A stretch of DNA of 30,645 nt from Candidatus Falkowbacteria bacterium CG23_combo_of_CG06-09_8_20_14_all_49_15 (GTDB taxonomy: Bacteria > Patescibacteriota > Patescibacteriia > Patescibacteriales > UM-FILTER-48-10), in NCBI GenBank assembly GCA_002771615.1, contig PCSD01000094.1, forward strand, positions 1 to 30,645, in the 5' to 3' direction. This document shows, piece after piece, positions 3,712 to 30,428 of the stretch (position 1 is the first letter of the stretch; the number at the start of each line of letters is the position of its first letter). The position numbers were made by a program, and so were the translations under genes. Below the pieces are notes generated by a model. The model searched no databases, was not told where the DNA came from, and saw only the letters and a program-made list of their open reading frames with translations.

Positions 3712-5676
3712 TTATCTGATCAGCCCATCGGTTTGGGCGATGGAATCGTCTTCCAGTTTAGTGGTTTTCGGCTTGGTTGATTTTTCAATCACCTGATTGG
3801 TTTCATTGTCCAAGGCGGAAATTTTTGCGCCGTTGGAAATGACAATTATTTTTCCTAAATTTTCCGCGGTCGGCGTCAAGGACAGACTGAATTCCGCGTC
3901 GGAACGGAAAATAGCCACTGGTAAGCGGCTGATTTCCCAAATCACCGCTCGTTCCTCCGGCTGGTAATAAATATTCCCCGCGGAAGTCCTCTCGTGCTCG
4001 GCCCATTCCATATGCAATGGCAGTTTAAAGTTGACTTTGATATTTGTCAAATCATGCAAATTATTCTTGATGGTCCAATAAACCTTGAAAGTCGTCTGCT
4101 CGCCGACCCGGGGCGGCAGGGGGCCGGTGCCAACGGCAATGTTATCAGCATTAAAATAACGGATTTCTTCTTGGAGTTTCAGGTCGCTATTCACGGTCGC
4201 GATGATGACATTGCTTCTGTTTTCGGCATTGATGTCCACTTTTGGCTGTTCGCCGATATTAAATTGGGCGTAGGCTTCAAGGCTATGGCTAACGCCGGGC
4301 TTGATTTGGTCTTCAGTTTTCACTTTTAAAGAAAAATCAATTACGCCTTCATGTCCGGCCCCAATCGCGGCCAAAGCCGGCAGTTCTGATTTACTCCAAG
4401 AAATAAAATTGCCTTTTTCTTTGCCGGGCGAACTGGTTTCCAAACTGGCCCAGTCAAGATATTCGCCGTTTAAAACCGCCATGATGACCACATCTTTGAG
4501 CTCAGACTCGCCTTTATTGGCATAAGAAACGGCGTAATGGAGATCCTGGCCGAAATCCACAGCCTGATTGGCTCGCGAACCGTTCAATAACAAAACCATA
4601 TTTAAGTCATTTTTCATAATGGCAAATTTCAGTTGATCGCGATAAAAAGGCCGCCACTTCCCGTCCGGATCTTCGTATTCAAAACGAAAAGGTACTTCCT
4701 GCTCGGTTTGCGCGTTTAATTTTTTGGTGAAGGTCAAAGGCAAAAGCAAACTGGTATCCGTGTCCGCAGCCAAATTTATCAGCCAAATATCCGCGCCGGC
4801 GCTCACCGCATTTTTATCGCCAGGCAGACTTTTAGCCGGATCGAAAGAAATATTTTCAGCAGGTGAAATCACCAGGCGAAAGGCGGATAAGCGGTTATCT
4901 GGTTCGGGGGAAAAAATAAATTTGACTTCGTTTTTGTCGTTGACCAGGATATTGGCCAGATAATCAAGTTTGGTCGTGAATCCGGGTCCGGAAACCGTGC
5001 TTACCCAAGATGTTTCCTTTTTAAATTCCGAAGAAAAATTTTCCAAATGATAAGTAAACGCGGCGTTAGCGACATTTTTGCCATTGGCGGCGTCAATCAG
5101 CGCGCCGCGGATCCGCAGGTTTATTTCTTCACCCACGCCCAAGCGCGCGAAAAGCCAGATTGATTTTTTTTCCGCCGGCGGGCGGGACGCGTCATAAAAA
5201 ATATAATTTTCCGGATAAGCGACTTCCAGCCGTCCGTCCAATAAAGGGCTGTTCGTGTTGTTTTTCAAATATATCTCATAATTGAATTCTTCCGCCGCCC
5301 GCACGGTTTCCCGCCCAAAAAATCTGAGCTCCAAAGCGGACGCGTCCACCGTAGCGGTAAAAATATAATAATAAGCGCTATAAGCGGCGGAAGCGGCGAT
5401 AAAAGAAAAAATCAGGAAGGAAAAAAACCAAAACAGGAAGCCGCGCTTTTTCCTCCTTTCCAGACGCTTGATGTCTGTTTCCTGGCCAGTGCCGTTGTAA
5501 ATTTCATTCAAACTTTCCTTAATCTCTTCTTCTTTATTTTCCTGCTCGACATAGCCTTCAAACGCTTCCACTTCTTTCTCGGAAGGCAAACGGCGGCGAA
5601 CAAATTCGCTTAAACTGGATTCGCCGGCCGCGGACAAATCAATTTTTTTTCCTTCAGATGGTGGCTCGCTGGTCAT
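3712..5676 (-). CDS. Single-pass membrane protein with repeated Ig-like (DUF11-like) extracellular domains
   Basis: Acidic N-terminus, hydrophobic helix FLFWFFSFLIFSFIAASAAYSAYYYIF, then three segments of Y.I...N.....L....l.v.lP type; domain call from motif recognition only. Confidence 0.6.
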   Translation of the reverse strand: MTSEPPSEGKKIDLSAAGESSLSEFVRRRLPSEKEVEAFEGYVEQENKEEEIKESLNEIYNGTGQETDIKRLERRKKRGFLFWFFSFLIFSFIAASAAYSAYYYIFTATVDASALELRFFGRETVRAAEEFNYEIYLKNNTNSPLLDGRLEVAYPENYIFYDASRPPAEKKSIWLFARLGVGEEINLRIRGALIDAANGKNVANAAFTYHLENFSSEFKKETSWVSTVSGPGFTTKLDYLANILVNDKNEVKFIFSPEPDNRLSAFRLVISPAENISFDPAKSLPGDKNAVSAGADIWLINLAADTDTSLLLPLTFTKKLNAQTEQEVPFRFEYEDPDGKWRPFYRDQLKFAIMKNDLNMVLLLNGSRANQAVDFGQDLHYAVSYANKGESELKDVVIMAVLNGEYLDWASLETSSPGKEKGNFISWSKSELPALAAIGAGHEGVIDFSLKVKTEDQIKPGVSHSLEAYAQFNIGEQPKVDINAENRSNVIIATVNSDLKLQEEIRYFNADNIAVGTGPLPPRVGEQTTFKVYWTIKNNLHDLTNIKVNFKLPLHMEWAEHERTSAGNIYYQPEERAVIWEISRLPVAIFRSDAEFSLSLTPTAENLGKIIVISNGAKISALDNETNQVIEKSTKPKTTKLEDDSIAQTDGLIR

Positions 5677-27436: not shown

Positions 27437-27568
27437 TTATAAAACCAAAGCCCGGGCGCGGTCAAACAGCAAGCGGCGCAATTCAATCGTATTGACGAGC
27501 GGCGGCTTGATGATGCGGACCCGGACTTTTTTTTGATTTTGATTCTGGCTGATTTTTATTTTGGCCAT
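27437..27568 (-). CDS. Putative 43-aa basic small protein between mraZ and rsmH; not in the ORF track
   Basis: MAKIKISQNQNQKKVRVRIIKPPLVNTIELRRLLFDRARALVL*; A-rich leader; 22 of the last 29 codons end in G/C; fills the gap, stop 13 nt before rsmH. Confidence 0.6.
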   Translation of the reverse strand: MAKIKISQNQNQKKVRVRIIKPPLVNTIELRRLLFDRARALVL

Positions 27569-27622
27569 TTTGTTTTTATTTTTTGTAATTTATTTTTTGC
27601 TCAAAGGTCTTTGCGGCAAATT

Positions 27623-28054
27623 TCAAATATCCAGATTGCCGAGATTTTCCGCGATCTCCGCGCTGTTTTTCTCTGTCCCGGTCTTATATTTCCCCCAATT
27701 ATCCTCGTCCCAAATTTCCAAACGGTTATAAAGCCCGGCGACGATGACTTTCTTTTTTAAACCGGCAAAGTGGCGAAGATATTCCGGAAGATTGATCCGA
27801 CCTTGGCTATCAAAGTCAACTTCCGCGGCGCCGCTGAGCATAAAACGGGCAAAAGCCCTTGATTTTGACTGGCCGATTGGTAAGTTGGAAAGCTTTTCCG
27901 CCAGAGCGGCCCACTGCTTTTTCGGATAAACGATCAGACAATTATCCAAGCCCTTGGTCGCGACCGCCCCTTCTTTCAATAAAACACGAAACTTGGCCGG
28001 AATCGCCATCCGTCCTTTTTCGTCTAAGCTATGCTTGTATTCACCGATAAACAT
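27623..28054 (-). CDS. mraZ: Transcriptional regulator MraZ
   Basis: MFIGEYKHSLDEKGRMAIPAKFR, TKGLDNCL, DSQGRI, GLYNRLEIWD; 143 aa from ATG 28054. Confidence 0.98.
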   Translation of the reverse strand: MFIGEYKHSLDEKGRMAIPAKFRVLLKEGAVATKGLDNCLIVYPKKQWAALAEKLSNLPIGQSKSRAFARFMLSGAAEVDFDSQGRINLPEYLRHFAGLKKKVIVAGLYNRLEIWDEDNWGKYKTGTEKNSAEIAENLGNLDI

Positions 28055-28161
28055 GCGGCCCAATGCTATTAAACGGAAATTTTAATGCTTAAAAGAATAT
28101 GTAAAACAATAATTAATGGAATTTATTTTTGTTTTTGTTTGTCTTTTTTTGATTTTTATAT

Positions 28162-28455
28162 TTATCGTTTAAGGCCGATAAGGAGGCCGGTCAATCTGTT
28201 TGTGGCGATTGAACCAGACCCCTTCTTTGTCTTAAAACCGCTTCGGATTGATTTTGCTGGCCCGAAGCTTTCCAGCCAAGCATGTGTTTTTGTTTTTCGG
28301 CCGGCGTTAATTGTCTTGAACCGTCCGGAAGACTCTTTTTTATTTTTGTTTGCTTTGCCGTTTATTTTTGTTTTAGGCAGACAAGGAGGTCGGCCATAAA
28401 GACCAAACCCCTTCTTTGCCTTAAACGCGCTTGCTAAAGGCGCGCTGATCCCCAT
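28162..28455 (-). CDS. Doubtful 97-aa Lys-rich ORF spanning the structured leader
   Basis: ATG with A-rich upstream context, but low complexity, and the homologous 3' arms of the repeat are read in different frames. Confidence 0.2.
   Translation of the reverse strand: MGISAPLASAFKAKKGFGLYGRPPCLPKTKINGKANKNKKESSGRFKTINAGRKTKTHAWLESFGPAKSIRSGFKTKKGSGSIATNRLTGLLIGLKR
28168..28432 (-). ncRNA. Candidate structured leader RNA with two copies of one stem-loop motif (28432-28372 and 28243-28168)
   Basis: 27/31 identity between 5' arms; stem AAGGGGUYUGGU/RCCGRCCUCCUU with a U-A to C-G compensatory change; A-rich linkers; no match to RNA families I recognise. Confidence 0.6.
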
Positions 28456-28487
28456 GCTATTTTATTTGGTAAGGCGTAAAATGAACT

Positions 28488-28514
28488 TCACCATATTTCA
28501 CCACTCATCACCAT
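28488..28514 (-). promoter_or_regulatory. MraZ operator (three direct repeats, 10-bp period)
   Basis: ATGGTGAtga-GTGGTGAaat-ATGGTGA just downstream of the -10; same architecture as known triple MraZ boxes. Confidence 0.8.
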
Positions 28515-28523
28515 TATGATTTT

Positions 28524-28552
28524 ATTATATGCCACTGGTGGCCCTATGTCAA
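28524..28552 (-). promoter_or_regulatory. Consensus sigma70 promoter of the dcw operon
   Basis: TTGACA (28552-28547), 17 nt, TATAAT (28529-28524). Confidence 0.9.
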
Positions 28553-28594
28553 CATTTTCCAGTAAAATTTAATTTATTTAATATTAAAGACAAA

Positions 28595-28630
28595 AATAAA
28601 AAAAATTCGGCCTATGCACAGGCCGAATTT
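28595..28630 (-). terminator. Intrinsic terminator after tsaB, insulating the dcw promoter
   Basis: Perfect 11-bp stem AAATTCGGCCT-gtgcat-AGGCCGAATTT followed by a T run. Confidence 0.85.
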
Positions 28631-28697
28631 CGTAAAAAAATATTTATCAATTATTCTAACACGTTTTTTTCAACATTCCGTCCACAAGTTAGAAAGT

Positions 28698-29108
28698 TTA
28701 CAGGAGTTTTTTCTTCTTGGTAATGCGGGGCGGACAACGGTACTCGGGCAAAATCACCTTAAAGCCGTTTTCCCCGACTTCGGCCGGATTGGCAAAATTG
28801 GGATCATTTAAACCTCCCCAAATGAATAAATTGCATTTCCAGCCATATGCCAAGGCATTGGCCGTGGCCGCCACAATCCTTTGGGTGGTATAACTTTCTC
28901 CCCGCGGATTAGCCAAAACCGCGTCAAGCGCGGTCTTTTCTAGGCCGCTTTGCTTGAGCAAGCGGTCTAATCCGGACAGAATAGCTTCCCCGTGGTCCAC
29001 CGCCGGATCTAAAATCGTTTGCGCGCAAATTTCCCCCCGGACGCGCAAAGCCAGATAAATGGCATCCTTTTTAGCTCCATCAATGAGAAGCTGGAATGTT
29101 TTCCGCAT
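28698..29108 (-). CDS. tsaB: Short, divergent TsaB-like protein (t6A biosynthesis)
   Basis: L.ID, H.E.IL..LD.LL, LDAV, G.SYT..RI..ATANALAY pattern; 136 aa, lacks the usual C-terminal half. Confidence 0.7.
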   Translation of the reverse strand: MRKTFQLLIDGAKKDAIYLALRVRGEICAQTILDPAVDHGEAILSGLDRLLKQSGLEKTALDAVLANPRGESYTTQRIVAATANALAYGWKCNLFIWGGLNDPNFANPAEVGENGFKVILPEYRCPPRITKKKKLL

Positions 29109-29129
29109 GGGCGTAAAGATAAAACAAGC

Positions 29130-30428
29130 TTATTCAATAAAGAAGCCGAGCGAATAATGCAAACGGCTGTCCGCGCCGCTCACTTTAATCTCCGTGGCCA
29201 AAGGTTTTTCCACGACCGGCACGGTGATGATTTCGTTGAAGCGGCCTTGTTCGTCAGAGTAAATTTTTGTTATTGAAGATTCAAATTTGATGGTTAATGG
29301 CTCCCTAATCCCGAAACCGCCGCCGCGCAAAAAAATCTGGCCGCCGGCGGCTGAACGATTTTTATCCGTCTTGAGAAAAAGCCCTTCGGCCGGACGCAAA
29401 TCTTCTTCGGAACTGGCGAAATAATCCAATAAGCGGAGATTTCCGTCATAAACTGCCAGACAGGAGCTGTTAAAAAGTACGATGATTTCGCCCTGATCGG
29501 TCATTACCGCTTCCAAACCCGCGGCCCAGCCGTTATCCAAGGGAGCGGTCGTCGTGTATTCCCAGGCGACCGGCTCCATGGTGTTTTTGTTCATTTTTAC
29601 CACGCCGATGCCGTCGGAAAAATAGACATAAGGGCTGCCGGCGGTCCCGGCGGCGTCATAGCCCAGATTGGAAGTATGGTAAAAAATTTTATCAATCCGG
29701 CCATCCAAGCTAAGTTTTTTCAATCCTTCATTATCAACCAGATATAAAGCACCATTCAAGCTGTCGTTATAAATCGCGTTTTTCTGATAATCTTCCAGGA
29801 GAAAATCCCTGGCCGCCGTTACCTGGCGATCGCGACGATTATAAATTTTCAACTGCCCGTCGGCAATTTGAAAAATCTGATCCCCGTTCGGAGAAAATTT
29901 GACATTATCCGGATGCGGACTTTTGACCTCATAGGCGTCAATCACCATTAAATCATAATTATAGATCTTCGTCCATTTATTGCTCACGGTCGCCACGTAG
30001 CGGCCAAAAATTTCCACGCCCGTAAACCAATCCCAGGAATTATCCTTGACGGATTTGACCAGGATCGGATTGTCCGGATTACTCACATCATATTTGGAAA
30101 AATACCGCCCTTCCGCCGTATAGGCGTAAAGCCGGCCATTCTCAACATTAAAATCCGCGTCAAAAAAATTCAGTTCCCGGCTCCAACGGTCCGGCTGGGG
30201 CTGGATGACAGCGGTGCGGCGCAGATAGCCATTTTCAAGCACGAAAAATTCAGCGTAACTCATGTTGGTAGTCACAATCACCACCTGCCCGTTATAATAG
30301 GCGGCTTTCCCGTGGGAATAGGCGCGGATCCGGCTCTGGCCCGGCTGGGCAAAAATAAAAACACCCAGGCCGCTCACCAGCAAAAAGAGCGCCACGAACC
30401 AAAAAAAGTTTTTCTTTGCTAATTTCAT
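29130..30428 (-). CDS. Exported beta-propeller-like protein (LVIVD-like repeat) with C-terminal Ig-like domain
   Basis: Signal/TM segment FFWFVALFLLVSGLGVFIFA; YDVSNPDNPILVKS; repeated short beta-strand segments; start moved to ATG 30428. Confidence 0.6.
   Translation of the reverse strand: MKLAKKNFFWFVALFLLVSGLGVFIFAQPGQSRIRAYSHGKAAYYNGQVVIVTTNMSYAEFFVLENGYLRRTAVIQPQPDRWSRELNFFDADFNVENGRLYAYTAEGRYFSKYDVSNPDNPILVKSVKDNSWDWFTGVEIFGRYVATVSNKWTKIYNYDLMVIDAYEVKSPHPDNVKFSPNGDQIFQIADGQLKIYNRRDRQVTAARDFLLEDYQKNAIYNDSLNGALYLVDNEGLKKLSLDGRIDKIFYHTSNLGYDAAGTAGSPYVYFSDGIGVVKMNKNTMEPVAWEYTTTAPLDNGWAAGLEAVMTDQGEIIVLFNSSCLAVYDGNLRLLDYFASSEEDLRPAEGLFLKTDKNRSAAGGQIFLRGGGFGIREPLTIKFESSITKIYSDEQGRFNEIITVPVVEKPLATEIKVSGADSRLHYSLGFFIE

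Follow-up and report, generated by a model that had tools for sequence, protein, structure and literature searches.

The locus studied here raises the question of what occupies the roughly 430 nt of leader that separate the MraZ boxes from mraZ in the mraZ/dcw (division and cell-wall) operon of Candidatus Falkowbacteria bacterium CG23_combo_of_CG06-09_8_20_14_all_49_15 (assembly GCA_002771615.1; genome 1.07 Mb). The 30,645-nt contig PCSD01000094.1, hereafter called the window, contains in this leader two copies of a hairpin which an earlier note, made from the sequence alone, had described as a tandem cis element controlling these genes. The hairpin is a new structured RNA motif of the mraZ/dcw 5' leader, restricted to one order of Patescibacteria and absent from Rfam 15, and it is in all probability a genuine conserved leader RNA.

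MraZ was found in 198 of 201 genomes of the order (64-74 % identical), and the core sequence of the hairpin was visible upstream of mraZ in about 19 of the 30 loci inspected. A covariance model (R1), built from 18 seed sequences of relatives as the earlier note had proposed, detected the hairpin in 59 of 151 genomes of the order, with compensatory changes in its pairs. All 69 matches that have mraZ on the same contig lie on the mraZ strand and upstream of mraZ, 1-487 nt from the AUG; the one apparent exception to this linkage is a match located 119 nt from a contig end. Across the order the hairpin occurs patchily but by clade, being present throughout families f16 (18/18), f9 (5/5) and f19 (4/4) and in part of f3 (11/19), and absent from f10 (0/19), f12 (0/18), f17 (0/11) and f8 (0/9). 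None of 147 genomes from other orders of the same class contained it (model R1, E ≤ 1e-5). A scan of a wider contig collection with a degenerate pattern gave mostly chance matches and five which were confirmed as true, one labelled Candidatus Falkowbacteria and the others 'Patescibacteria group'. The genome studied here has only two matches to R1, both at the mraZ locus, and the core AAGRCAAAGAAGGGGTYTGG, expected 0 times in the window, is found there twice, its only occurrences in the 1.07 Mb. A genomic repeat or miniature inverted-repeat transposable element was ruled out, the element being confined to the mraZ locus.

The hairpin is 60-90 nt long and consists of a basal stem, a small internal loop, a middle helix and an apical stem-loop, with the consensus AUUAAGGC-RA-AGAAGGGG-U-CUGAU...(free stem-loop)...AUCAG-N-CUYCUYYU-NN-RYCUUAAU. 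The basal stem, AUUAAGR/YCUUAAU, is conserved in sequence, its UUAAG/CUUAA part being nearly invariant, and in the middle helix a near-invariant purine strand, AAGAAGGGG, pairs with CYUCYYYU via an invariant G.U. A U opposite C or A is mismatched in about half of the copies and paired in the remainder. On its 3' side the internal loop varies freely (GA, GG, UA, CG and others), and so does the apical stem in both length (about 6 to more than 25 bp) and sequence.

Pairing was assessed in a model-guided alignment of 65 sense copies, in which 92.7 % of the cells form standard pairs, compared with 87.6 ± 0.4 % in column shuffles, the alignment being fitted to the covariance model and kinship being ignored. 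Sliding the partners by 1-3 columns reduced pairing to 31-57 %, and double-sided compensatory changes were found at 12 of 19 pairs, a number reached by none of 500 shuffles. G.U or U.G cells amount to 189 of 1234 (about 15 %), one G.U (columns 20-95) being invariant. On the opposite strand these cells would turn into A/C mismatches, so that the strand is settled as mraZ sense, and because of them the sense strand outscores the antisense strand in R1 (41-73 compared with 21-41 bits across the copies).

The earlier note had not recognised the element as a known riboswitch, and the search of Rfam 15 with cmscan agrees with this, giving no match on either hairpin in positions 27500-29200 of the window at E ≤ 10; a weak L20_leader/ctRNA match fell at 28592-28724, on the terminator of the upstream gene. 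Neither did the leaders of ten relatives' loci give a match at E ≤ 0.1, and a full-text literature search found no description of the motif.

In the window mraZ lies on the minus strand, and the features of the locus, in the order of that strand, are as follows.

28631-28602, minus strand: terminator of the upstream gene, the first element in minus-strand order, followed by promoter, boxes, leader and mraZ
28524-28552, minus strand: promoter of the mraZ/dcw transcript, sigma-70 type, TTGACA-17-TATAAT, matching the consensus at 12/12 positions
28488-28513, minus strand: three MraZ boxes, GGTGA at a 10-bp period, adjoining the -10 on its downstream side
28448-28457, minus strand: leader element H2, GCAUGGGGAU, whose AUG opens a 97-amino-acid open reading frame (ORF)
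28372-28425, minus strand: hairpin motif copy 1, promoter-proximal (R1 match at 28368-28428, 53.8 bits, E 2.5e-11, and minimum-free-energy fold)
28298-28328, minus strand: leader hairpin H1, stem and loop UCAAGACAAUUAAC, folding at −8.1 kcal/mol, a diverged copy of the family-wide hairpin with a CNAGAYAAU loop
28256-28284, minus strand: CAUGCUUGGCUGG element overlapping a small hairpin GCUGG...CCAGC, the window variant of the conserved CAUGCUUGUCGUG
28168-28237, minus strand: hairpin motif copy 2, mraZ-proximal, with a longer apical stem (R1 match at 28165-28239, 60.3 bits, E 4.2e-13)
27623-28054, minus strand: mraZ, from the list of ORFs
28162-28455, minus strand: 97-amino-acid ORF running across both hairpins, judged not to be a gene

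A consensus promoter and MraZ boxes far upstream of mraZ had been claimed before and were found as described. The promoter at 28552-28524 is the sole promoter-like site in 27500-29200, and the distance from the end of its -10 (28524) to the ATG of mraZ (28054) is about 470 nt. Judged from the position of this promoter, at which the transcription start site is predicted, a 5' untranslated region (UTR) of more than 200 nt would stand directly upstream of mraZ, and the boxes, just downstream of the -10, are probably transcribed. The arrangement of TTGACA...TATAAT and boxes recurs ahead of mraZ in the relatives, the GGTGA/GTGGGG/GGTGA boxes being kept both with and without the hairpin, and promoter and boxes precede all leader modules in the window as in the relatives. 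In the 92 of 151 genomes without the motif the leaders are short, with the MraZ boxes 10-150 nt from the ATG, which indicates that the structured leader supplements the MraZ operator as an accessory layer. In many families a DnaA-box-like sequence, TGTGGATAA, recurs a short way ahead of the mraZ promoter, often as an inverted pair TGTGGATAAG...TTATCCACA; these sites (loci L004-L030) lie between an upstream tsaB-like gene and the promoter. On the other side of mraZ, between it and rsmH, an ORF of 43 amino acids (27437-27568, minus strand) has no Pfam match.

The two copies in the window were as the earlier note had presented them. Their 5' arms (28213-28243 and 28402-28432) form a direct repeat with 87 % identity (27/31) at a spacing of 189 nt and their 3' arms (28162-28193 and 28365-28396) one with 78 % identity at a spacing of 203 nt, so that the hairpins differ by the 14 nt that had been stated for their inner parts. 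Each copy folds alone into the two-tier stem in which a 5' arm pairs with its own 3' arm, copy 1 at −29.1 kcal/mol (z −3.6) and copy 2 at −24.7 kcal/mol (z −2.6), and the differences between the copies preserve pairing, U-A becoming C-G and, after the U/C mismatch, U.G becoming U-A. On the antisense strand R1 gives copy 1 only 21.3 bits (sense 53.8) and copy 2 25.4 bits (sense 60.3). The tandem arrangement did not prove to be a defining property: two sense copies occur in just 8 of the 59 motif-bearing genomes, from which it follows that tandemness is local duplication and not design, and this genome owes its second copy to a lineage-specific duplication.

The conserved leader is larger than the hairpin, which is one of its modules beside H1, GCAUGGGGAU and CAUGCUUGUCGUG. 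Shared upstream of the motif in relatives are an A-rich spacer, H1, GCAUGGGGAU(GC) and often a further hairpin with the loop GRGCCUAUC. H1 has a 6-8-bp stem and a 12-13-nt loop (CNAGAYAAU...), and among about 45 distinct sequences its stems differ yet are fully complementary, the stem covarying freely. In most leaders H2, that is GCAUGGGGAU(GC), precedes a hairpin copy by 10-83 nt, and the H2 9-mer has no genome-wide enrichment. Downstream of the motif, CAUGCUUGUCGUG is found in many leaders, and terminator-like hairpins stand just before mraZ in several. All these modules are present in diverged form in the leader of the window, in the order boxes-H2-motif-H1-motif, which is that of two-copy leaders; single-copy leaders have the order boxes-H1-H2-(H3)-motif. 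Pairing of the H1 loop with the 3' internal loop of the hairpin was considered and rejected, as inspection revealed no covariation.

In the f16 leaders of loci L063, L042, L064 and L053, CCCCAUGC stands directly ahead of a terminator-like hairpin (GCGCAGAU...AUCUGCG UUUGUGGUUUU). Pairing of CCCCAUGC with H2 farther upstream (GCAUGGGG) is conceivable, in which case a possible antiterminator/terminator alternative would enclose the hairpin motif. The window (27500-29200 scanned) has no terminator downstream of the hairpins. In five leaders, which belong to four families, a PF05635 gene (23S rRNA intervening sequence, IVS, protein) stands between hairpin and mraZ, at L009:1963-2355(-) (Pfam E 1e-15) and at the same position in L023, L037, L074 and L084. 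The PF05635 family is strongly expanded in the order, with matches in 111 of 151 genomes, up to about 19 per 1-Mb genome and more than 600 in all.

What the hairpin might do is suggested by where it is conserved. A fixed lower helix and basal stem, combined with a free apex and a free 3' loop side, resemble protein operators and are unlike small-molecule pockets, which favours the binding of a factor. The hairpin would be transcribed from the MraZ-controlled promoter as part of the long modular leader, and its lower half would be the recognition site of a trans-acting factor, most likely a protein, that sets the output of the dcw operon after initiation. This could proceed by processing or stability of the leader, RNase III and RNase Y being the nucleases present, or by read-through of leader terminators, and this genome, having two copies, would have gained a further binding site. 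As a mechanistic class, a factor-binding cis element acting by one of these two routes is judged about equally likely to be right or wrong. The hairpin does not act mainly by occlusion of the mraZ ribosome-binding site, given its distance of 1-487 nt from the AUG and the PF05635 gene that can lie between, and direct masking of that site is unlikely.

The machinery was surveyed in five genomes, 92-100 % complete, with or without the motif. RNase III (PF14622) and RNase Y were present in all five, and RNase E/G (PF10150), Hfq (PF17209), Rho, CsrA and a second NusG were found in none of them. Several candidate mechanisms were rejected on such grounds: Rho-dependent attenuation on CA-rich spacers, as there is no Rho; a CsrA site at GCAUGGGGAUG, as there is no CsrA; and antitermination of the Nus/boxA or LoaP type, the rrn boxA GCACUUUAACAA having no conserved counterpart in the motif and each genome having one NusG. 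The PF05635 protein, whose gene follows the hairpin in the five leaders, was likewise rejected as a partner, being a hugely expanded family that does not track the motif.

Some observations weigh against the interpretation as a factor-binding leader RNA. The survey yielded no candidate binding protein, given a single NusG, no CsrA or Hfq, and PF05635 genes that are distributed independently of the motif, and the function must be dispensable since 92 of 151 genomes lack the motif. Much of the covariation is contributed by the basal and apical stems; the purine strand of the central helix is invariant, so that support for this helix comes mainly from C/U changes opposite G. Related genomes are moreover not independent, and the pairing statistics ignore phylogeny.

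Among the alternatives, the suggestion that the locus does not act as RNA, and that the 97-amino-acid ORF encodes a basic, internally repeated protein or the inverted repeats form a DNA site for a dimeric regulator, is largely refuted and scarcely credible. The 5' arms do lie 63 codons (189 nt) apart in the same frame, giving AFKAKKGFG and GFKTKKGSG, but the 65 homologous copies have no consistent-frame ORF across the motif, many of them being closed in all three frames, and the 97-amino-acid product has no Pfam match. The upstream ORFs that start from the H2 AUG are 5-43 codons long, with neither stop nor frame fixed. Both the 97-amino-acid protein and an MGM... leader peptide were rejected as neither is conserved, and the ORF was for this reason judged not to be a gene. 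In DNA or antisense RNA, the 15 % of G.U cells would be A/C mismatches, and sense scores are about twice those of the antisense strand. The earlier conclusion that selection acts on RNA and not on this ORF is in line with the covarying mraZ-sense structure and with the lack of conservation of the protein. An intramolecular mimic of the Shine-Dalgarno (SD)/anti-SD pairing, in which an AAGGGG:CCUCCUU helix would imitate or compete with the 16S tail CACCUCCUUUCU and recruit or repel the 30S subunit, is very unlikely. The 16S 3' end of this genome, GGAUCACCUCCUUUCU, does retain CACCUCCUUUCU, the 3' arm of copy 1 reads ACCUCCUUGUCU, and the purine strand could pair with the anti-SD; however, in many relatives the 3' arm reads CUUCUC, which is no anti-SD, the SD-like strand is not consistently followed by a start codon, the distance to the mraZ AUG varies, and the genome is barely SD-dependent, with an SD-like sequence at only about 2 of 23 long ORFs of the window. 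Mimicry of the 16S 3' tail was rejected because relatives do not keep the resemblance of the 3' arm to an anti-SD, and mimicry of 16S helix 44 (h44), the RsmH target, because h44 of this genome is not similar; two universal signatures did not locate 23S rRNA in this genome, and the rRNA comparison covers 16S h44 and the 3' end. A kink-turn was also rejected: GGC-AAA-GA fits on the 5' strand, but the opposite GA is present in a subset only, mainly f16, and in the window copies the opposite strand reads UGUCU or UAUCG. A generic hairpin without a specific partner, whose duplex is cut by RNase III or caps the mRNA as a 5' stabiliser and so sets the half-life of mraZ, would suit the irregular duplex of about 25-30 bp (about two turns of double-stranded RNA), the RNase III encoded in this genome and in all five genomes checked, and a function that does not depend on leader position. 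It is quite doubtful, since such a hairpin needs no invariant 9-nt purine strand, invariant G.U or basal stem conserved across at least 20 families.

Single-hairpin aptamers with internal loops, as well as tandem ones, are known (NAD+-I, guanidine-II, xanthine), and the hairpin could by analogy be a small-molecule riboswitch aptamer, tandem here for cooperativity, which senses an envelope or growth-state metabolite. A conserved, covarying 5'-leader structure without an Rfam match (12/19 pairs compensatory, 92.7 % pairing) and the terminator-like hairpins downstream in some leaders fit this proposal, but the 3' side of the internal loop is variable and conservation resides in helical strands, not in loops or junctions. 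An expression platform is not fixed, as neither a terminator nor pairing with the ribosome-binding site is constant, the start codon is 1-487 nt away, a whole gene can intervene, and only 8 of 59 genomes have two copies. An aptamer is accordingly rather unlikely, and of the cis-element interpretation in the earlier note the conserved leader RNA on the mraZ sense strand stands, whereas a ligand-binding riboswitch is not favoured. A related and broader proposal, equally improbable, is that the hairpin with H1, GCAUGGGGAU and CAUGCUUGUCGUG constitutes a new RNA sensor, either a riboswitch that responds to a precursor of the cell envelope or to a host-derived metabolite, or an operator for MraZ or RsmH themselves; if true, it would be a second, post-initiation division checkpoint in genome-reduced Patescibacteria that lack Rho, Hfq and RNase E. 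The hairpin is also unlikely to be the target or source of a regulatory small RNA (sRNA), its purine strand AAAGAAGGGGU serving as a landing pad for C/U-rich, anti-SD-like sRNAs or the leader being processed to a trans-acting sRNA. This has a precedent in Rhodobacter, in which a long mraZ leader gives rise to UpsM, paired by StsR (PMC5089854, PMC8266604). The single-stranded CCCCUUCUUUAU and ACCUCUUCUUU of mini-units on contig C41 are complementary over 10-11 nt to the invariant strand of the motif, one of these units also carries CAUGCUUGUCGUG, and a near-universal non-coding RNA (ncRNA) of the order shares CAUGCUUGUCGUG and holds an exact complement of H2, AUCCCCAUGC. Against it, a stable helix sequesters the purine strand, the C41 units are conserved no further than the sister genome (BLAST), and one complementary 10-mer is not significant when [AG]AAGAAGGGG occurs 13 times in the genome. 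Pairing of H2 with the order-wide ncRNA was rejected in spite of the exact complement, since H2 variants have no compensatory changes in the ncRNA. The Hfq and RNase E/G which the Rhodobacter mechanism needs were not found, and the window hairpins have no following terminator.

The C41 mini-units lie on the minus strand of contig C41 of the genome studied here, G000 (about 4150-4640; L217/L257), as two tandem promoter-terminator units, candidate sRNAs or an attenuator leader, upstream of a gene for a SpoU-family rRNA methylase and then rny (RNase Y). They contain the C/U-rich, anti-SD-like CCCCUUCUUUAU and CAUGCUUGUCGUGACACCUCUUCUUUAAGG, and a partial BLAST match was obtained in the sister genome only. 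A repeat of about 125 nt at G000:C41:4516-4641, with AAATAGGACATTTCTAAAAAAC twice, has copies on C116, C118 and C2 (82-99 % identical) and is also multicopy in G052, G066 and G089, mostly at contig ends; it is probably a mobile-element terminus common to several genera. An RNA-like locus of 130-150 nt, unlinked to mraZ (L213:1395-1550, equal to G113:C10:57597-57752, with homologues L227-L256), reads AAGCGGGUAGGCAAGAAAAUUUC ... GAAAAUCCCCAUGCUUGUCGUGCCUGACCCGC with A-run and U-run flanks and contains the 13-mer CAUGCUUGUCGUG of the mraZ leaders. It was found in 140 of 151 genomes of the order by BLAST and has no Rfam match; a small signal recognition particle (SRP) RNA was not detectable in five genomes of the order, and the locus may be the divergent SRP, 6S or other housekeeping RNA of this lineage.

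Division regulation in the ultra-small and mostly uncultivated Patescibacteria is unexplored, and few regulators are recognisable. About 40 % of the sampled genomes of one order have gained, in the dcw operon, a structured modular leader of 300-500 nt downstream of the canonical MraZ operator, which implies that a second layer of regulation acts on the genes for division and the cell wall. With its support from covariation the hairpin makes a clean candidate for Rfam, and it provides a handle for finding the partner of the favoured factor-binding element by pull-downs, probing and reporter assays.

The motif is a new RNA family of a familiar kind, the structured cis-regulatory leader. Tandem-hairpin riboswitches such as guanidine-II (mini-ykkC) and NAD+-I (nadA) have conserved loops or bulges, and tandemness is their rule. 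The window resembles them in having two similar hairpins in one leader, but in the present motif the loops vary freely, conservation falls on the helical strands and one copy is usual. Among protein-binding leader operators are ribosomal-protein leaders, the thrS operator and phage hairpins of the boxB/nut type, which act on their own transcript; the hairpin is likened to them by its conservation pattern, having a sequence-constrained lower helix and internal loop, a free apex and one or more copies. It differs from them in that neither rRNA mimicry (16S h44, 3' end; rrn boxA GCACUUUAACAA) nor a specialised NusG paralogue was found. The mraW RNA motif (RF01746) is an orphan conserved RNA of Actinobacteria, upstream of mraW/rsmH, and is thus also a structure without an assigned role at the head of the dcw cluster; phylum and architecture differ, and RF01746 gave no match (window E ≤ 10, ten relatives E ≤ 0.1).

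The closest known system in logic is the UpsM/StsR extended dcw leader of Rhodobacteraceae. In Rhodobacter the long mraZ leader yields the sRNA UpsM, with which the sRNA StsR pairs, and UpsM requires RNase E, Hfq and a Rho-independent terminator within the leader; the mraZ leader of E. coli is 38 nt (PMC5089854, PMC8266604). Like the UpsM leader, the leader described here is an unusually long, structured and family-restricted predicted 5' UTR directly upstream of mraZ. Regulation of dcw after initiation, which the Rhodobacteraceae leader performs, is for this leader a proposal. There is no similarity in sequence or structure between the two, the present leader of about 470 nt being built of repeated or modular hairpins. 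RNase E/G and Hfq were not found in the genomes surveyed, and no terminator follows the window hairpins, although terminator-like ones do in several relatives. With these likenesses and differences, the leader described here would be the third independent long regulatory mraZ leader, after UpsM of Rhodobacter and the actinobacterial mraW motif.
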